Source: a virus (Duplodnaviria; Heunggongvirae; Uroviricota; Caudoviricetes). Taken from it: DNA of 41,553 nucleotides. The DNA is taken from the IMG/VR virus record IMGVR_UViG_2534681759_000006. One strand, 5' to 3'. The notes under the pieces were generated by a model. The model did not search any database. It was not told the DNA's origin and saw only the letters and a list, made by a program, of their open reading frames with translations. Each line of letters begins with the position of its first letter. Position 1 is the first letter of the stretch. Shown piece by piece: positions 5,812 to 41,553 of this stretch. A program made the translations under genes and the position numbers.

Positions 5812-6246
5812 ATGTCCGGTAATATCTATACGCTGTACAAATCCCACTGTGAAAATGTTGGAAAGTATCGGGGCATTGAAATCAGTGGGGTAGTGTCATC
5901 AGTCGAAATAAGCAAAGTTGAATCAAGGGCAACATTACTTACTCTTTTGGACCTTGTCTTACATGAGCACCGGAAGAAATTCGGCACTCCCTATAATCAG
6001 TTGAATGGGAAAAAGGCTCTGGTTCACCTTATTCTGATGAAGCATCACTGGATGCCAAAACAGATTAATGAGATGAAATTTGATGAACTTCTTCTTTCAA
6101 TTCAGGATGAACTCACACTTGATAAAATAAGCGTAACCGCCCAGAAATTTTTAGATTATCGAGACTGGAGATCACAAATTCATCACTTTGATGATTTTGA
6201 CGAAAATGAATGGGATCCTAATTTGTCTGCACAATATCTAAAGTAA
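5812..6246 (+). CDS. hypothetical AT-rich protein (144 aa), oriented against the early-left operon
   Basis: AAGGA SD 6 nt upstream; visibly lower GC than neighbours; no recognisable motif. Confidence 0.6.
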   Translation: MSGNIYTLYKSHCENVGKYRGIEISGVVSSVEISKVESRATLLTLLDLVLHEHRKKFGTPYNQLNGKKALVHLILMKHHWMPKQINEMKFDELLLSIQDELTLDKISVTAQKFLDYRDWRSQIHHFDDFDENEWDPNLSAQYLK

Positions 6247-8702: not shown

Positions 8703-9644
8703 ATGAGCACTAAATTAACCGGCTATGTATGGGATGGTTGCGCAGCGTCAGGCATGAAATTATCCAGCGTGGCAATTATGGCACGCCTGGCTGATTTCAG
8801 TAATGACGAAGGTGTGTGCTGGCCATCAATTGAAACCATTGCCCGCCAGATTGGCGCGGGGATGAGTACCGTCAGAACGGCTATCGCACGGCTGGAAGCA
8901 GAAGGCTGGTTAACGCGTAAGGCGCGTCGCCAGGGTAACCGCAATGCGTCGAATGTTTATCAGCTTAACGTTGCGAAGCTTCAGGCTGCGGCTTTTTCTC
9001 AACTGTCAGATTCTGACCCGTCAAAATCTGACGCATCAAAATCTGACCCGTCAAAATTTGATGCGTCGAAATCTGGCAAAAAAGCGGGTTTTCACCCGTC
9101 AGAATCTGGCGGGGATCCGTCAGTAAAATCAAAACATGATCCGTCAGATAAAAAAACTTCTCGTCCGGACGCTTCGCAACCGGACACGCAGAAGGCTGAA
9201 CAGGATTTTTTAACTCGCCATCCTGATGCGGTTGTATTCAGCCCTAAAAAGCGCCAGTGGGGGACGCAGGATGATTTGACCTGCGCACAGTGGCTCTGGA
9301 AAAAAATCATCGCCCTGTACGAGCAAGCCGCCGAATGTGACGGCGAGGTGGTTCGTCCCAAAGAACCGAACTGGACAGCCTGGGCAAACGAAATTCGCCT
9401 GATGTGTGTGCAGGATGGTCGTACTCACAAACAAATCTGCGAGATGTACAGCCGCGTCAGCCGCGATCCGTTCTGGTGCCGTAACGTGCTCAGCCCGTCG
9501 AAGCTGCGGGAAAAATGGGATGAGCTTTCCCTGCGCTTATCGCCGTCCGTCAGCACGTACACCGAAAAACGCGAAGACCCGTACTTCAAAGCCAGTTACG
9601 ACAACGTGGACTACAGCCAGATCCCGGCAGGATTCAGGGGGTGA
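8703..9644 (+). CDS. replication initiation protein (O-like; N-terminal winged-helix, DnaT-like C-terminus), contains origin iterons
   Basis: N-terminal HTH (ETIARQIGAGMSTVRTAIARLEAEGWL); internal array of ~15-bp iterons as for lambda ori inside O. Confidence 0.7.
   Translation: MSTKLTGYVWDGCAASGMKLSSVAIMARLADFSNDEGVCWPSIETIARQIGAGMSTVRTAIARLEAEGWLTRKARRQGNRNASNVYQLNVAKLQAAAFSQLSDSDPSKSDASKSDPSKFDASKSGKKAGFHPSESGGDPSVKSKHDPSDKKTSRPDASQPDTQKAEQDFLTRHPDAVVFSPKKRQWGTQDDLTCAQWLWKKIIALYEQAAECDGEVVRPKEPNWTAWANEIRLMCVQDGRTHKQICEMYSRVSRDPFWCRNVLSPSKLREKWDELSLRLSPSVSTYTEKREDPYFKASYDNVDYSQIPAGFRG
9003..9160. repeat. origin-like iteron array (at least 5 copies of ~15-bp CCGTCAAAATCTGAC-type units) followed by an A-rich tract
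   Basis: Direct tandem repeats read in sequence: CCGTCAAAATCTGAC / GCATCAAAATCTGAC / CCGTCAAAATTTGAT / GCGTCGAAATCTGGC / CCGTCAGAATCTGGC, then GATAAAAAAACTT. Confidence 0.75.
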
Positions 9645-9943
9645 TCATGAGTCTTTTGAATGAAGTTCAGAAATACATTGAAGCCCATCCGGGGTGTACT
9701 TCCGGAGACATTGCGGATGCTTTTGCAGGTTACTCACGGCAGCGCGTTCTGCAGTCAGCAAGCAAGTTACGTCAGAGTGGTCGTGTGGCTCACCGTTGCG
9801 AAGGGGATACACGCAGACATTTCCCGCGCCTGACTGAGAGAGCGCAGGAGGCGGAACCGCAACCAGTTCGTGAAACCAGACCTGTGCGCAATTTCTATGT
9901 CGGCACTAACGATCCCCGGGTGATTTTGTGCCTGACCCGCTAG
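9641..9943 (+). CDS. hypothetical winged-helix protein (100 aa) ending at an in-frame TAG
   Basis: ATGA overlap with replication gene; wHTH-like N-terminus; the frame continues after the TAG into an ANR-like segment. Confidence 0.5.
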   Translation: MIMSLLNEVQKYIEAHPGCTSGDIADAFAGYSRQRVLQSASKLRQSGRVAHRCEGDTRRHFPRLTERAQEAEPQPVRETRPVRNFYVGTNDPRVILCLTR

Positions 9944-10135
9944 GCGGAAGAACTGGAGTCCAGGGGCTTATACCATCGTGCTGCAACGGTGTGGATGGCG
10001 GCATTCCGTGAAAGCCACTCCCAGCCAGAACGAAACAATTTTCTGGCGCGTCGTGAGCAGTGTTTACGGAAAAGCAGCAAGCGCGCTGTATCGGGTGATG
10101 AGTGGTATCTGTCAGGGAATTACGTGGGGGCGTAA
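9944..10135 (+). pseudogene. ANR-family-like small regulator segment with no start codon of its own, in frame directly behind a TAG (possible amber-interrupted gene)
   Basis: Translation AEELESRGLYHRAATVWMAAFRESHSQPERNNFLARREQCLRKS... resembles ANR-type small regulators; no ATG at its N-terminus; stop overlaps the next start (TAATG). Confidence 0.4.
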
Positions 10136-10461
10136 TGACGACGTTAACTCAATGCCAGCAGCAGGTGCTGGATATGCTGATTTCTTATCAGAAAGAACGT
10201 GGCTTCCCGCCAACCAATCAGGAGGTGGCAACCATGCTGGGATACCGTTCGGTGAATGCAGCGGTGGAGCATCTTCGCGCACTGGAGAAAAAAGGCGTCA
10301 TCACGATAAAGCGTGGCGTGGCCCGGGGGATCACGCTTCATACCACAGTGAAGGACGACGACAGCGAGGCAGCCGGGATTATCCGCGCACTGCTTGCCGG
10401 TGAGGAAAACGCCAGACTGCGTGCAGCCCACTGGTTACATGAGAGGGGCCTGAAAGTATGA
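10135..10461 (+). CDS. LexA-type winged-helix DNA-binding domain protein (108 aa from MTTLTQ...)
   Basis: Matches the LexA N-terminal DNA-binding pattern (LT..Q..VL..I...G.PP...E.A..LG..S.NAA..HL.ALE.KG.I); GGGGG SD upstream. Confidence 0.55.
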   Translation: MTTLTQCQQQVLDMLISYQKERGFPPTNQEVATMLGYRSVNAAVEHLRALEKKGVITIKRGVARGITLHTTVKDDDSEAAGIIRALLAGEENARLRAAHWLHERGLKV

Positions 10462-34742: not shown

Positions 34743-35387
34743 ATGCATCGTATAGACACGAAAACCGCGCAGAAGGATAAGTTCGGCGCGGGTAAGAACG
34801 GTTTTACCAGTGGTAACCCCCAGACTGGCACGCCTGCCACCGATCTGGATGATGACTACTTTGACATGTTGCAGGAAGAACTTTGTAGCGTTGTTGAGGC
34901 ATCCGGTGCCAGTCTTGAGAAGGCGCGGCACGACCAGCTGCTTACCGCGCTTCGTGCGCTGCTGTTAAGCCGCAAGAATCCGTTTGGCGATATCAAATCG
35001 GATGGCACCGTGAAAACGGCTCTCGAAAACCTTGGTTTGGGAGAAGCGGCAAAACGAAATGTAGGAACAGGTTCAGGTCAGATACCGGATATGAGTTCTT
35101 TTTCTGGCAGCATTGCCAGCAAGGGATATCAGAAGTTACCGGGAGGATTGATTATCCAATGGGGGGCAGGAGATGCAGGTACGGGTTATGTAGGCTCGAC
35201 AGGAAATGAGATGAATTTCCCAATCGCTTTTCCGTCACAATGTTTTCAGGTGGTGACGTCCTACGATAATGGTGGAGGAAAAATTGTTGCCGGGGCAGCA
35301 GGGAATATGACCAGGACAGGATTTCTTCTACGCTGTGATGCTTCTGGTGGCAATTATAATTTTCGCTGGTTTGCAATAGGGTGCTGA
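34743..35387 (+). CDS. tail fibre protein: constant N-terminal part plus currently expressed variable C-terminal part
   Basis: Crossover site lies inside the gene at the NLGLGE codons; downstream tfa gene. Confidence 0.75.
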
Positions 35388-35388
35388 T

Positions 35389-35832
35389 ATGAGTAATTAT
35401 TATTTTTCACGGACGACGTTAGCTTTTTATCCGGTAGATATGCTGGAGCTATATCGCTCATATGACAGCTTACCGGATGATATTACGCCAGTATCTGATG
35501 AAATATTTTTGACTTATTCAGGAACACCACCTGAAGGGAAAGCGCGCGGTGCAAATGATGATGGACAACCTGAGTGGGTTGATATTCCACCAATGACTCC
35601 TGAAGAAGCAATACTCCTTGCCACAGCTCAAAAACAAAATCTTATTGATAATGCCAACGAATATATGAACAGTAAGCAATGGCCTGGCAAAGCAGCTATT
35701 GGTCGTCTGAAAGGTGACGAACTGGCGCAATATAATTTGTGGCTGGATTACCTGGACGCACTGGAACTGGTCGATACTTCCGGTGCGCCAGATATTGAAT
35801 GGCCTACGCCTCCGGCAGTTCAGGCCAGATGA
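35389..35832 (+). CDS. tail fibre assembly chaperone (Tfa)
   Basis: Tfa C-terminal motif (NLWLDYLDAL...WPTPP). Confidence 0.8.
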   Translation: MSNYYFSRTTLAFYPVDMLELYRSYDSLPDDITPVSDEIFLTYSGTPPEGKARGANDDGQPEWVDIPPMTPEEAILLATAQKQNLIDNANEYMNSKQWPGKAAIGRLKGDELAQYNLWLDYLDALELVDTSGAPDIEWPTPPAVQAR

Positions 35833-36406
35833 CATCCGGCGCGGTGCTGGTATCTGTTACCGTCACAGCGTCAATGTAATCCAGCACGGCGTTAAGTCGG
35901 GTTGTTTCTGCCTGCGTCAACTTCCGTCCGGCCTGCAATTTCAGTTGAATCAGACTAATGGAAGCCATTGCAGTATCAATCAGTGACTGACGTTGTGCTT
36001 CTGCCGCGTCTACTGCGGCGCTATGCTGTGCCTCGGTATCCGTCACCCATTTCTCACCATCCCATTTATCGTATGGCGTTAACGGGGCGATAGTGGTTGT
36101 TTTTTCGGGGTAATCACCCGGAGTTGTGATTTCTTTGGCGTCTCCCGTTTCGGTGTTATAGACGATTTCACCGCGATGGTCTGGCACATATTCCCATGAG
36201 TTTAAATCCATCGAACGGCAGATAGCATAACCCGCCTTATGTGTGCCAGGGGCATCTAAACAGGAATATGCAGGGATACCGACGCCAACAGCAAGATATT
36301 CATTTGAAGTGGAAATATATTCTCGAGTTTCACCATCATAGTTATAGACGGTAATATTCCCTGCTTTGGTGGCGATAATCTCGCTATTTAATATGGCGTT
36401 ATCCAT
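35804..36406 (-). CDS. alternative tail fibre assembly chaperone (Tfa', inverted orientation)
   Basis: Tfa motif (LNAVLDYIDAV...WPELP); convergent with tfa. Confidence 0.8.
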   Translation of the reverse strand: MDNAILNSEIIATKAGNITVYNYDGETREYISTSNEYLAVGVGIPAYSCLDAPGTHKAGYAICRSMDLNSWEYVPDHRGEIVYNTETGDAKEITTPGDYPEKTTTIAPLTPYDKWDGEKWVTDTEAQHSAAVDAAEAQRQSLIDTAMASISLIQLKLQAGRKLTQAETTRLNAVLDYIDAVTVTDTSTAPDVIWPELPEA

Positions 36407-36895
36407 TATGCAGCCCTCACAATATAGTTAAATGCAATATTCCTTGGTCGAACCCTAAAACCAGCCCCTGCGCCTGCTCCAATTGGTGGCAATTCGATAG
36501 AGGGGTATGCTGTTGCAGGGGAATATAAACCTTCACGGGAATCATAATCAGTCGTCATATAGTTAGACGTATTATCAGAAACAGTTTCTGTCGGTCTGGT
36601 AACCAGACGATAAGAGCCAGTGGTTGGTGACCTGACCAGACCAAAACTTTCAACCAGAGTGGCTTTTTGAAAGCTTAATAATCCCCGACCACTGTCAGCT
36701 CCACGCCCGTCATCCCAGCCACGAATAAACTCACCACGTAAATCAGGCAATTTATTTGTCGGATAAGCCTTTGCCAGTTCCGGGTATTCTTCAGCAGAAA
36801 AAGCTGCACCGTTGCATTTCAGCCAGCCTGTCGGCGGAGTGGCTGAAGGCCATGGAACAGGGACACCAACAGGTAATGCCGAACCTTCTCCCAAA
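36406..36895 (-). CDS. alternative tail-fibre variable C-terminal segment (expressed only after inversion)
   Basis: Frame shares the GLGE crossover codons with the + strand fibre gene; tail-collar motif (GWLKCNGAAFSAEEYPELAKAY...LPDLRGEFIRG). Confidence 0.7.
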
Positions 36896-36965
36896 CCAAC
36901 GTTTATGAAAATGCAGAAATAACGAGCAAATGGCATCATTCCTGCTTTTGTCAGAGGGATCCACT

Positions 36966-37520
36966 ATGCTTATTGGCTATGTACGCGTATCAACAAATGA
37001 CCAGAACACCGATCTACAACGTAATGCGTTGAACTGTGCAGGATGTGAGCTGATGTTTGAAGACAAGATAAGCGGTACAAAGTCCGACAGACCAGGACTG
37101 AAAAAGCTGCTCAGGACACTATCGGCAGGTGACACGCTGGTGGTCTGGAAACTGGACCGACTGGGGCGCAGTATGCGGCATCTTGTCGTGCTGGTGGAGG
37201 AGTTGCGCGAACGAGGCATCAACTTTCGTAGTCTGACGGATTCAATTGATACCAGTACCCCAATGGGGCGCTTTTTCTTTCATGTGATGGGTGCCCTGGC
37301 TGAAATGGAGCGTGAACTGATTGTTGAACGAACAAAAGCTGGACTGGAAGCTGCTCGCGCACAGGGACGAATTGGTGGACGTCGTCCCAAACTTACACCA
37401 GAACAATGGGAGCAGGCCGGACGATTAATTGCATCAGGCGTTCCTCGCCAGAAGGTGGCGATCATCTATGATGTTGGTATATCGACACTGTATAAGAAGT
37501 TTCCGGTCGGAGATAAATGA
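36966..37520 (+). CDS. pin: serine DNA invertase (Pin/Gin/Hin family)
   Basis: N-terminal resolvase catalytic motif (LIGYVRVSTNDQNTDLQ), C-terminal HTH; adjacent to invertible segment. Confidence 0.9.
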   Translation: MLIGYVRVSTNDQNTDLQRNALNCAGCELMFEDKISGTKSDRPGLKKLLRTLSAGDTLVVWKLDRLGRSMRHLVVLVEELRERGINFRSLTDSIDTSTPMGRFFFHVMGALAEMERELIVERTKAGLEAARAQGRIGGRRPKLTPEQWEQAGRLIASGVPRQKVAIIYDVGISTLYKKFPVGDK

Positions 37521-37560
37521 AACCGTAGCACGTCGTATGCAAGAAGATCGTGCTGCGGTT
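37521..37560. repeat. hairpin repeat copy A (CCGTAGCACG tcgtatgcaagaagat CGTGCTGCGG)
   Basis: Near-identical to copy B at 38540..38580; followed by GGTTTATGCTT so it may also terminate pin. Confidence 0.7.
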
Positions 37561-37580: not shown

Positions 37581-38450
<870 letters not shown>

Positions 38451-38539: not shown

Positions 38540-38580
38540 TCGAAACCCGTAGCCACGTCGTATGCAAGAACGTGCTACGA
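38540..38580. repeat. hairpin repeat copy B (CCGTAGCCACG tcgtatgcaagaa CGTGCTACG)
   Basis: Same orientation and loop sequence as copy A; lies in the GIY-YIG gene's upstream region. Confidence 0.7.
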
Positions 38581-38827
38581 CTGGCTGGTGAACTTCCGAT
38601 AGTGCGAGTATTGAATGATTTCCAACTGTTATCGATTTTGCGTATTTTTTGCATGAGAGGATTTTTACCTCCTCCCACCGATCCTCCATGGCTTTACGCC
38701 AGTGTCTCTGGTCTGCTATGTACCAGAAGCGGAAGTTGTGTCTGTTAGTATGATATTATAATTACACTCGCTTATAATAAGCCCACAATACAGATATAAA
38801 AATATCTCAACGCTTGGGAGTTAACAA

Positions 38828-39739: not shown

Positions 39740-39910
39740 ATTATATTTACTAACATTTGAACTAGCGCATCTTTGGTGCAGAGACACCACCATCTTGGGG
39801 ACACTGTGAGGCCACTGGCTTCCCAACTTATCGTTATACAGGATAATAAGGTGCTCCAGGGTGGCTATGAACTTGATGTTACGTCTGCGATTTGCTCATA
39901 AGGGACAACC

Positions 39911-39947
39911 ATACTCAAATCTCCCACATTGCAGGAGATTTGAGTAT
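39911..39947. promoter_or_regulatory. perfect 14-bp palindrome ATACTCAAATCTCC-N8-GGAGATTTGAGTAT overlapping the SD and start codon of the recombinase gene
   Basis: Read directly; the right arm contains GGAG and ends in the ATG. Confidence 0.8.
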
Positions 39948-40548
39948 GAACACGTCACCGTGGAACAAAGACCGTATCATCGGCCAAAAAAGACCACTTC
40001 AGATATCTCATATCTGGGGGATCCGAATCCGGCTTGAACTGGAAGGTAAAACGCGCGATTTAGCTCAGTTCGATATGGTCCTGGACAGTAAGCTACGAGG
40101 CTGTGATCTGGTCAAACTCAAAGTATCTGATGTTGCATATGGTAGCTCTGCTTCAAGCAGAGCTACGGTGCTGCAACAGAAAACCGGTAGCCCTGTGCAG
40201 TTTGAGATAACCAAAGGGACAAGAGAAGCTGTTGCTGCATTGATAATGCTTGGCAATTTGCATAGTAAAGACTTCTTGTTTCGGTTTCTGGTCGGAACTA
40301 ATCAGCTCATATCTACCCGGCAATACAACCGAATTTTTCATGGGTGGGTAGAAAAGCTTGGTCTCGAAGATTCGCTTTACAGCACTCATTCCATGAGAAG
40401 AACAAAACCTTACCTGATCTACAAGAAAACCAAGAATCTTCGGGTGATCCAACTTCTGTTGGGCCATAAGAAACTGGAAAGCACAGTCCGTTATCTGGGT
40501 ATTGAAGTAGATGATGTGTTAGAGATCTCTGAATCGATTGAAGTCTAA
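39946..40548 (+). CDS. small tyrosine recombinase, catalytic domain only (about 200 aa; FimB/FimE-like size)
   Basis: Catalytic motifs LRGCDLVKLKVSDV (box I), HSMRRT (H-x-x-R), LLGHKKLESTVRYLG (H..Y); no N-terminal core-binding domain. Confidence 0.7.
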   Translation: MNTSPWNKDRIIGQKRPLQISHIWGIRIRLELEGKTRDLAQFDMVLDSKLRGCDLVKLKVSDVAYGSSASSRATVLQQKTGSPVQFEITKGTREAVAALIMLGNLHSKDFLFRFLVGTNQLISTRQYNRIFHGWVEKLGLEDSLYSTHSMRRTKPYLIYKKTKNLRVIQLLLGHKKLESTVRYLGIEVDDVLEISESIEV

Positions 40549-40585
40549 GGTTGTCAGGGCTGCAACAACAGCCCTGTGCCAGGAG

Positions 40586-40614
40586 TTGACACTGTTAGCA
40601 TCGCGCTATGTTAA
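40586..40614 (+). promoter_or_regulatory. candidate sigma70 promoter (TTGACA, then a TG-containing -10 region) upstream of the last gene
   Basis: Consensus -35 hexamer read in sequence 17 bp upstream of TGTTAA; preceded by hairpin CAGGGCTG caacaa CAGCCCTG. Confidence 0.4.
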
Positions 40615-40680
40615 TCTATGTTGAGCAGTTAAAAATGATAATGTAGTTTATATGGATAATCAGTTTATAGAGTGGGTGAG

Positions 40681-41553
40681 ATGGAACTAGATGAAACACT
40701 TGAAGTTATCAAAAATAATTTTAGTAATAATCAGAAGAAACTATTTAAAAGGATTGAGCCAGCCACTAACCGTCAAGTAGCTATCGGTCTTATTAGTTTA
40801 CAAGGAGTGGAAAAAACATCTCAGGCTGAGATAGAGGTAATTGCCGGCCTCATATCTCAGTTTAGTCCATTGGAAATCGATAGTTTTCAAAATTCACCAC
40901 GACGAATAACTCTGAAAGGTCAATTCCCAAACGGACATATTGTTTATATCGAGCCTCAGTATAAGGTTGGCAATATAAACCCAAAAGCCCAGCCTTGGGC
41001 AATAGACCTTGTCCTTAGACTAAATAGATGGATTGGTCAAGATTTGGTTGAGATTGCTGCTATTGGCATCGAGTATGATGGCCACATAGCTCATTATGTG
41101 GAAAGTAAAATTAAGTCTACTTACAAGCGTGATGCAGTAATAACTAGTAACGAAGGATTTCAATCGATTAGGATCTCACCAGAACAATGGAAATCGTCTA
41201 AAGAGGATCTTAAGAAGGCAATTAAAAAGTATTTTGAACATCACATAAAAAAAATTGAAAAAGTTCAACTAAGCACAATAAACGCCCAAAATTTCAACAA
41301 TTTTATTTATGAAAATGAAAATGAAGTGATATCCACTGTAACTTGCCCTTTATGTAATGGAAAAGGCAGTTTAGCGGGAGAAGATTGTCCGATCTGTAAT
41401 GGAATGGGATCCGTAAAAAGATATATTGCTGCAAAGGTGAATCTTTCTAATTATGAAAAATTCACTTGTCCTGACTGCAGGAATATAAAATTAGATTGCA
41501 GAACCTGCAATGGTGAAGGATCAATTAGCAGAGAAAAAGCATTAGAAATGTAA
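40681..41553 (+). CDS. AT-rich protein with C-terminal DnaJ-type zinc-finger repeats (CxxCxGxG) and a possible PD-(D/E)xK/DUF559-like N-terminal domain
   Basis: C-terminal CPLCNGKGS, CPICNGMGS, CPDC, CRTCNGEGS; N-terminal IDLVL...IEYDGHIAH resembles the DUF559/Vsr-like motif (tentative). Confidence 0.6.
   Translation: MELDETLEVIKNNFSNNQKKLFKRIEPATNRQVAIGLISLQGVEKTSQAEIEVIAGLISQFSPLEIDSFQNSPRRITLKGQFPNGHIVYIEPQYKVGNINPKAQPWAIDLVLRLNRWIGQDLVEIAAIGIEYDGHIAHYVESKIKSTYKRDAVITSNEGFQSIRISPEQWKSSKEDLKKAIKKYFEHHIKKIEKVQLSTINAQNFNNFIYENENEVISTVTCPLCNGKGSLAGEDCPICNGMGSVKRYIAAKVNLSNYEKFTCPDCRNIKLDCRTCNGEGSISREKALEM

Follow-up and report, generated by a model that had tools for sequence, protein, structure and literature searches.

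The window analysed here is a stretch of 41,553 nucleotides, held as the virus record IMGVR_UViG_2534681759_000006 in IMG/VR, and is an Escherichia coli chromosomal segment with a prophage; close to its end lies a gene for a tyrosine recombinase of 200 amino acids (aa), at the start of which stands a perfect palindrome. The explanation which best accounts for the comparative data, and which is on balance favoured, is that the open reading frame (ORF) encodes a functional enzyme, one of a widely distributed family of minimal tyrosine recombinases (~200 aa), that this enzyme would exchange gene cassettes by way of two different sites, and that the palindrome would form a hairpin limiting translation. 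A more far-reaching and more tentative proposal is that the minimal recombinase and its two heterospecific core sites may constitute a natural, self-encoded platform for cassette exchange, its expression limited by a hairpin that sequesters the Shine-Dalgarno sequence (SD), and may carry defence and other accessory genes back and forth between chromosomal islands, plasmids, prophages and, in P2-like phages, the Z/fun hotspot. Under the same proposal the platform would be spread through Enterobacterales and marine members of the Gammaproteobacteria, and bacteria of soil and freshwater would have related versions of it.

The protein consists of a catalytic domain preceded by a short extension: the Pfam match to PF00589 (E 2e-14) covers residues 35-184 only, and a family profile matches solved structures through the catalytic domain of XerD alone (query 36-186 vs XerD 131-279). 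The initial annotation had described a tyrosine recombinase reduced to its catalytic domain, and the ORF indeed is intact, with R51, K79, H148, R151, H174 and Y183 invariant both in A3 (11 sequences, 73-92% identity) and in A7 (55-59%). Xer-type recombinases (XerC, XerD, XerA, XerH, XerS) carry an N-terminal core-binding domain of ~100 aa and total ~290-360 aa; here just 35 residues lie ahead of the catalytic domain, and the Xer models of NCBIfam score far below their cut-offs (46.7 bits vs 220, 41.9 vs 335), the matches beginning at model positions 111-193. No integron integrase (IntI) model of NCBIfam was matched, the nearest being an archaeal model named XerA/'integron integrase' (the one with 46.7 bits).

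The family is large. A word-indexed homologue search gave 7998 matches, the best 120 of which are 73-93% identical and nearly all 194-203 aa long, and an exhaustive search gave 301 cluster representatives (50% identity) at E <= 1e-30, the full-length ones being 198-211 aa, with alignments spanning from about residue 4 to the C-terminus. The gene occurs in 905 of 5426 complete E. coli genomes, in up to three places per genome, and on 383 PLSDB plasmids, including those of Rhizobiales and Rhodobacterales at 40-57% identity; from deposited phage genomes it is almost absent.

The surroundings of the gene were compared in 80 loci from contigs representing one genome per species, in 25 loci from viral contigs, and in 80 metagenome loci of a distant clade (L111 and L118-L197 in the numbering of loci used here), whose recombinases are only 55-60% identical. 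In four unrelated E. coli contexts, namely the window prophage, a Qin-like prophage and two CP4-44-like islands, the gene is part of a sharply bounded conserved module, which runs from ...GTCCGCnnnnTCGCTCATAAGGGAC, located ~25 bp ahead of the palindrome, as far as ...CAGCCCTGTGCCAG, ~35 bp past the stop codon; the right end breaks off at ...CTGTGCCAG in four different contexts. Both module ends recur, on the same strand and 1-5 kb away, in most loci. The full element to which they belong is ~77 bp long, reads aaCGTCCGCTccTCGCTCAcAGCGGAC, ~18 nt, GTCCGCTtcGTGCCAGaAGCGGACgtt, and is composed of two sites, IR1 (pattern GTCCGCT..TCGCTCA..AGCGGAC) and IR2 (GTCCGCT..GTGCCAG..AGCGGAC), with the same inverted arms of 7-9 bp and different centres of 6-7 bp, TCGCTC(A) vs GTGCCA(G). 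Among 66 aligned full elements the centres TCGCTC and GTGCCA are 90-98% invariant, and the 7-bp arms are ~38-90% Watson-Crick complementary by position, at least ~62% except at the fourth position. The mismatches in the arms have no wobble bias, which fits double-stranded half-sites. Inverted arms, an invariant centre and two types of centre, as in heterospecific core sites, are thus all found.

Over 85 loci, the full-element profile has 197 matches on the strand of the recombinase vs 25 on the other, the latter being mostly palindromic re-hits. The IR profiles have no matches in the remaining 37 kb of the window, nor in 14.7 kb of P2 that include the old/tin hotspot. The recombinase gene stands in for the 18-nt spacer of one IR1-IR2 element, with IR1 ~60 bp upstream of its ATG and IR2 ~30 bp downstream of its stop codon. 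In the window, the upstream IR2, at the left boundary of the cassette that precedes the gene, reads GTCTGCTAT-GTACCA-GAAGCGGAAG, its centre being degenerate (GTACCA for GTGCCA), and the IR1 which follows reads GTCTGCGAT-TTGCTCA-TAAGGGAC; past the stop codon, the site IR2' forms the right edge of the piece of DNA carrying the recombinase (hereafter the junction piece), which runs to 40590, and the start of the next cassette. Between the stop codon and IR2' lies a stem-loop that is kept in nearly all loci and shows fully compensatory changes in the Colwellia locus L081 (GAGGCAGA/TCTGCCTC); no T-run comes after it, and hence it is not a classical terminator.

Sites of this kind delimit 98 cassettes of 0.1-8.8 kb (median 1.85 kb), each with IR2 on its left and IR1 on its right and one to several genes between, the ORFs being oriented either way (126 on the plus strand, 110 on the minus strand). 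A typical array starts with a lone IR2 and ends with a lone IR1; the recombinase gene is found in mid-array, and several loci have two copies of it. The cargo comprises MFS and LysE transporters, regulators of the AraC, TetR and LysR families, GNAT acetyltransferases and short-chain dehydrogenases, as well as defence genes (Tmn, Nsn, PD-T4-2, restriction enzymes, Septu PtuA, SIR2, GmrSD, PARIS AriA). The same cassette may recur in different arrays: a NUDIX cassette is present in L040 and L062, a LysE/AraC cassette in L010, L069 and L056, and the Mrr cassette of the window in P2-EC67. In the window, this cassette spans from IR2 to IR1, and the 293-aa ORF that follows the junction piece is the next one. 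A weak AT-rich 8-bp inverted match, mentioned by the initial annotation as flanking the Mrr-like gene, is irrelevant to its boundaries, which are the two sites.

One array, L013, holds at 8921-10413 an insertion of the IS110 family (with a 425-aa DEDD transposase), placed exactly between the left arm of an IR1 (GTCCGCTTC) and its TCGCTCA centre, and missing from the 99.9%-identical array L018 (8921). The difference between L013 and L018 at this IR1 had been considered a cassette insertion, and turned out to be the IS110-family element.

A case in point for the proposed movement of cassettes concerns the P2-like phages. The Mrr cassette of the window is 91% identical, at the DNA level, to ORF1 of the Z-region of P2-EC67 (AJ512685), a record that annotates promoters inside cassettes as well as a 'left' and a 'right inverted repeat', the left one containing IR2 and the right one IR1. 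In each of P2, Wphi, fiAA91-ss, vB_EcoM-12474III, L-413C and P2-EC67, an IR2 lies ~60 bp past gene G and an IR1 immediately precedes the FI promoter, the cargo between the two sites being different. P2-EC48 has the outer IR2 and IR1, its G and FI genes being beyond the 4-kb record, and P2-EC45 has IR2 only, no IR1 reaching the threshold within its record of 1.7 kb. In the Z-region of P2-EC48 (L090, AJ512681, 91-3800) there are three cassettes separated by an internal full element, so that the phage hotspot can hold a small array. None of these phages carries the recombinase gene along with the sites.

The points at which homology breaks lie inside the centres. Across six P2-like phages with five cargos, backbone identity extends through the left arm and GTGCCA centre of IR2 and decays in the right arm; on the IR1 side the left arm is cargo-specific, no variation is seen in the TCGCTCA centre, and backbone identity returns with the right arm. 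Likewise, the Mrr cassettes of the window and of P2-EC67 have the inner arms in common and not the outer ones: the right arm of the window IR2 is shared and its left arm is not, and at the other end the homology stops just past the IR1 centre, at GCTCA(T/A)A. The NUDIX cassettes of L040 and L062 also share inner and not outer arms. The outer arms thus go with the platform and the inner arms with the cargo. Exchange within the central region is a hallmark of tyrosine recombinases, and the pattern of breaks is as would be expected for exchange inside the central regions of two different sites.

From these data I infer that the enzyme would act on IR1 and IR2, that exchange would take place also in trans, and that translation of the recombinase would be repressed. 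The gene would occupy the junction piece of a composite recombination element, with IR1 upstream and IR2 downstream, and the enzyme would most likely recombine IR1 with IR1 and IR2 with IR2. Since the centres differ, the sites would be heterospecific and a cassette would be excised, inserted or swapped as a unit; in this way gene cassettes of 0.5-9 kb could pass from one array to another, be it on a chromosomal island, a plasmid or a prophage, or at the Z/fun hotspot of P2-like phages, where the enzyme would act in trans, as these phages have the sites and not the enzyme. The initial annotation had proposed that the recombinase may invert or excise adjacent cargo; excision, or exchange, comes close to the comparative data, while inversion finds no support, the sites being on the same strand and the eight genomes with the window locus collinear.

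Several observations weigh against this account of the sites. The copies next to the recombinase gene are atypical: the window IR1 does not reach E <= 0.1 with the IR1 hidden Markov model (HMM) and is called by alignment alone, its right arm is degenerate (AAGGGAC), and in the downstream IR2 the left arm is replaced by the 3' half of the stem-loop. In the distant clade repeated IR2-like sites are few, and some are inverted around the gene rather than direct. Lacking a core-binding domain, the recombinase may need host factors, none of which was identified, and an AlphaFold2 model built on the 11-sequence alignment is uninformative (predicted local distance difference test score 40). Moreover, homologous recombination in the conserved sites of ~25 bp could give similar breaks and is a live alternative. 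Inverted IR2-like sites flanking the gene were seen in the metagenome loci L180, L193, L159 and L190 of the distant clade, such as CAACCGGCCAAGAGCAGAC, which lies upstream on the minus strand, and CAACCGGCCAAAAGCAGAC, which lies downstream; the enterobacterial arrays are built differently.

The best surviving of the other explanations, though an unlikely one, is that IR1 and IR2 are not substrates of this enzyme; the shuffling of cassettes would then be the work of homologous or phage-encoded recombination acting on short conserved repeats, or else of a host enzyme, and the recombinase would serve elsewhere, for instance in the integration or resolution of its own small element. Phages with the sites and without the gene, as well as the atypical copies beside the gene, would be in keeping with this, and breaks within a conserved block of ~25 bp cannot alone separate site-specific from homologous exchange. 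Nevertheless, nearly every locus, in each clade, has an IR1 on one side of the gene and an IR2 on the other, and arrays run on the strand of the gene. Motifs resembling IR2 and IR1 are found on either side of the gene in the distant clade too, where the centre is a different one (CGGCCAG-type), so that the sites appear to change along with the enzyme. The layout of arm, centre and arm, with an invariant centre of 6-7 bp, is moreover the core-site architecture of tyrosine recombinases. The arms are not known to resemble dif or cer, which also counts against this explanation.

As to the palindrome, it reads CATACTCAAATCTCC-cacattgca-GGAGATTTGAGTATG, and its arms (39910-39924 and 39934-39948) are 100% complementary. 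The perfect palindrome described by the initial annotation is real, with one base more on each side than the 14 bp given there, that is, arms of 15 bp; the loop, typed there as 8 letters although the coordinates of that annotation imply 9, is of 9 nt. The placement of the GGAG SD in the right arm (39934-39937) and of the ATG at 39946 is confirmed; the entire ATG (39946-39948) is inside the arm, at a spacing of 8 nt from the SD. By my own arithmetic, a perfect 15-bp inverted repeat within ~20 nt would be expected ~1e-3 times by chance in 41.5 kb. RNA of the region 39880-39990 has a minimum free energy (MFE) of -32.7 kcal/mol with the hairpin as its core (z = -4.27; none of 200 shuffles equals it), the hairpin by itself accounting for about -22.5 kcal/mol.

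The hairpin is present in every locus of the close clade (80+ loci). In 51 distinct sequences, 91.7% of the cells of its 15 pairs are paired, vs 27-44% after a shift of the 3' partners by 1-3 columns; there are two-sided changes at two pairs (C-G to A-U or U-A, 11 cells) and one-sided changes to U.G or G.U at 10 of the 15 pairs (34 cells), and A.C, the wobble of the opposite strand, is clustered mainly at a single pair. The arms of IR1 and IR2, whose mismatches have no wobble bias, serve as an internal control for this strand bias. The SD is paired in the MFE structure of 39 of 39 unique close-clade (Enterobacterales-type) leaders, with a mean z of -5.0 vs shuffles of the 5' part. The distant clade rebuilds a stem between anti-SD and SD with a different sequence: a CUCC strand 10-14 nt upstream pairs with GGAG, neighbouring bases covary, CAU often pairs with AUG, and 45 of 62 sequences have a paired SD. 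The leader thus has a stem that pairs SD and start codon and is conserved by covariation.

Conservation with wobble and compensatory changes, together with re-creation in the distant clade, indicates that the palindrome acts in the messenger, and it is most likely an mRNA hairpin hiding the SD and AUG of the recombinase; the sequestration of the SD, and with it translational control, had been suggested in the initial annotation and is supported to this extent. Pulling the other way are A.C mismatches at pair 9-42 in 21 sequences, which weaken the outer half of the hairpin, the L058-type subclade, in which the stem is interrupted and its outer half likewise weakened, and the modest excess of SD pairing over shuffles in the distant clade (73% vs 55%, mean z -1.65).

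It is considerably less probable that the palindrome is a DNA site and not an RNA structure, be it a core or crossover site of the recombinase (a possibility raised in the initial annotation) or an operator bound by a dimer for self-repression. The 15-9-15 geometry does resemble sites of the lox/FRT type, the palindrome sits at the very 5' end of the gene, and symmetric changes in both arms would also be expected of a palindrome bound by a dimer. Against a DNA site, the half-site ACTCAAATCTCC has no copies in the window besides the two arms, matches with two mismatches being at chance level (4 vs 3.4 expected), and no second copy of the palindrome is found in the arrays either; its sequence is unlike the GTCCGCT arms. 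The junctions at which the DNA of the module becomes variable are outside the palindrome, which is therefore most probably not the crossover site. Where one side of a pair alone has changed, the result mostly fits a G.U pair on the sense strand, a bias that the true IR arms do not have, and the distant clade keeps only the covering of the SD by a stem, with a different sequence.

Returning to the hairpin, the conserved 60-bp leader holds no sigma-70-like promoter in a consensus scan, and a weak TTCCCA-16-GATAAT site (39820-39847) is part of the Mrr cassette, outside the conserved module; the CATACT/CATAAT in the left arm might be a -10 box, yet this sequence is also dictated by the pairing with the ATG. 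A conserved leader with no recognisable promoter suggests that transcripts probably enter from the variable upstream cassette. In such messengers the hairpin (about -22 kcal/mol) would bury SD and AUG and would keep translation of the recombinase low, irrespective of read-through from the upstream cassette. By analogy with IS10 and IS50, a variant in which a transcript starts inside the hairpin is possible.

Other features of the leader were noted. In L056 (~5950-6010) a frameshifted copy of the recombinase has AACACG replaced by GTTG after the ATG, by which the palindrome is lengthened to 22 bp; the change looks like a templated, hairpin-directed mutation. In the window a 7-nt inverted repeat, GACAACC and GGTTGTC (39905-39911 and 40549-40555), brackets the hairpin and the coding sequence; in L081 it takes the form CTGATAA and TTATCAG and is shifted, and it is missing in L058-type and other subclades. 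The long-range pairing that GACAACC and GGTTGTC would allow occurs in the main clade; it forms no part of the model.

Very improbable is an invertase of the FimB/FimE type, to which the initial annotation had likened the protein, flipping an adjacent promoter or gene segment in the manner of phase variation. FimB and FimE are tyrosine recombinases of ~200 aa with no separate core-binding domain and probably depend on accessory factors. The size of the present protein and the absence of that domain match FimB/FimE, and the cargo beside it is of a defence-like class, in which phase variation is frequent; however, no FimB/FimE model is among the six NCBIfam families matched at E <= 0.01, the flanking sites are direct units on the same strand that bound cassettes and are not inverted pairs around a promoter, and 8 of 8 E. 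coli genomes carrying the window locus are collinear across 4.1 kb, showing no orientation variants. The only orientation variant near the recombinase locus is a tail-fibre segment controlled by Pin. Judged by its sequence, the recombinase is neither a FimB/FimE-type invertase nor an integron integrase. That the gene is what truncation has left of a full-length integrase, with an incidental palindrome, as the missing N-terminal domains and a neighbouring pseudogene for an 'Arm DNA-binding domain' beyond the window might hint, can practically be dismissed, given thousands of ~200-aa homologues, a conserved N-terminus and start codon, invariant catalytic residues, and conservation of the leader and the 3' element as well.

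Table 1. Features around the recombinase gene and cassette sites of P2-EC48; coordinates are those of the window unless a record is named.
Feature	Coordinates	Strand	Remarks
Pin-type serine invertase (pin)	36930-37520		
GIY-YIG gene (LEM-3-like)	37581-38405	-	downstream of pin
IR2, left boundary of Mrr-like cassette	38710-38738	+	nhmmer IR2 profile, E 1.6e-5
Mrr-like restriction endonuclease, 303 aa	38828-39739	+	cassette cargo; PF04471 Mrr_cat
IR1, right end of Mrr cassette and left edge of junction piece	39883-39906	+	alignment with 70+ loci
Palindrome, candidate mRNA hairpin	39910-39948	+	left arm, anti-SD strand; right arm, SD and ATG
Tyrosine recombinase, 200 aa	39946-40548	+	catalytic domain with 35-aa N-terminal extension
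3' stem-loop CAGGGCTG-caacaa-CAGCCCTG	40555-40576	+	just after recombinase stop codon
IR2' centre GTGCCAG and right arm GAGTTGAC	40576-40590	+	weak IR2 HMM match 40570-40596
293-aa ORF, cargo of downstream cassette	40672-41553	+	DnaJ-type CXXCXGXG zinc-finger repeats; weak REase_MTES_1575 match
Closing IR1 of the 293-aa ORF cassette	L002 9834-9863		window 41583 onward, ~30 nt past window end
P2-EC48, IR2	91 (AJ512681)		
P2-EC48, full IR1-IR2 element	1399-1470 (AJ512681)		
P2-EC48, IR1	2710 and 3773 (AJ512681)		

The window starts with proA (1-1254), and the prophage inside it carries a module for a contractile tail. After pin, the order of genes is the GIY-YIG gene, the Mrr-like endonuclease, the small tyrosine recombinase and, at the window end, the zinc-finger/restriction-endonuclease-like 293-aa ORF. 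The Mrr-like gene has a promoter-like site of its own at 38750-38778 in the promoter scan. The 293-aa ORF has four CXXCXGXG repeats in its C-terminal part along with a weak REase_MTES_1575-like region, and could be a defence gene. The arrangement is identical in E. coli APEC 102026 (L002), with 100% identity over the 901-bp recombinase region and at least 99.8% across the aligned 8.5 kb; past the point corresponding to the window end, L002 continues with the IR1 site and then, after a further ~280 bp, a tRNA-Thr fragment (attR).

The segment encoding the C-terminus of the tail fibre and the tail-fibre-assembly protein (window 35027-36904) is inverted in L002 (3278-5155, 99.8% identity), with an overlap of ~20 bp at either end, the prophages being otherwise identical; this is a host-range switch of the Pin/Gin type caught in both states. 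The GIY-YIG gene is bracketed by direct repeats of ~40 bp (37520-37560 and 38543-38580), 17 nt of which are exact (CACGTCGTATGCAAGAA), and the downstream copy lies within a stretch (38543-38651) akin to a non-coding region of HK97, HK106 and Stx phages; the repeats and the phage-like non-coding stretch suggest that the nuclease gene was inserted into that sequence. In E. coli STK39-3-E (L087, 439-5325), a 4.4-kb Avs2 (AVAST type 2) gene adjoining pao genes stands directly upstream of DNA that matches L002 9834-10157, i.e. from the terminal IR1 of the prophage to the attR fragment. The IR profiles give no IR1 match in L087 at E <= 1. This locus appears to be the remnant of an array end like that of L002, with a different defence cassette.

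Among known systems, integrons also combine a tyrosine recombinase with a mobile array of cassettes, imperfect-palindrome sites and diverse cargo including acetyltransferases and defence genes; along the same line, the IS110-family element of L013 targets IR1 as IS1111-attC elements target attC. Integron cassettes are co-oriented and promoterless, and the attI/Pc platform stands at one end of the array. Here, by contrast, the recombinase is of 200 aa, matches no IntI model and is found in mid-array; instead of a single attC, a cassette has a pair of unlike sites, double-stranded in appearance and with no wobble bias, and the cassettes have promoters of their own and either orientation, with no Pc/attI platform. 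In engineered recombinase-mediated cassette exchange (Cre with lox/lox2272, Flp with FRT/F3) a segment is likewise exchanged as a unit between two sites with common arms and differing centres; the present system would be natural and self-encoded, with a much smaller enzyme. The pdif modules of Acinetobacter plasmids are also flanked by two sites with common arms and a differing central overlap, but they make use of the host XerC/XerD and of inverted site pairs. As for the leader, the fold-back inhibition of IS10 and IS50 similarly depends on a stem-loop that pairs the ribosome-binding site and start codon and limits expression from incoming transcripts; in these elements, however, their own promoter starts inside the hairpin, so that the native transcript escapes, and none was found in the leader here.

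A 2004 paper by Nilsson, Karlsson and Haggard-Ljungquist (Mol Biol Evol 21:1; PMID 12949155) is said to have described inverted repeats flanking the Z/fun region of P2-like phages and to have proposed site-specific recombination. These repeats (GenBank AJ512676-AJ512685) are the same sequences as IR2 ('left') and IR1 ('right'); the present analysis resolves them into two heterospecific core-type sites, finds them in arrays outside phages, and places a recombinase gene between them. No recombinase is named in the annotations of the GenBank records or in a review's summary of that paper. The literature surveyed, which did not cover Nilsson et al. 2004 itself, yielded no description of a ~200-aa recombinase family of this kind or of two-site arrays, and nothing relevant on natural cassette exchange, and such a family is not mentioned in the passages on integron-like recombinases, the core-binding domain and FimB of a paper classifying tyrosine recombinases. 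In a 2026 analysis of thousands of P2/P4 hotspots, rapid swapping of cargo without pseudogenisation is described, and for exchange with other elements transposable elements, homologous recombination, shared domains and illegitimate recombination are named as possible routes, none being favoured (PMC13586616).

To sum up, the hairpin alone is a modest finding, namely a well-supported translational throttling of a recombinase gene that has no conserved promoter of its own. If the exchange reading is true, it names the missing enzyme for the P2 Z/fun 'inverted repeats' of 2004, and would provide a mechanism by which hotspot cargo is swapped so rapidly and cleanly, which recent surveys report without an explanation. 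A recombinase of 200 aa with short, naturally heterospecific sites could also be of interest to genome engineers. Under the same condition, there would be a second, structurally different system of cassette arrays beside integrons, and two-site cassette exchange would offer a testable route for the clean movement of anti-phage and accessory genes between phages, islands and plasmids.

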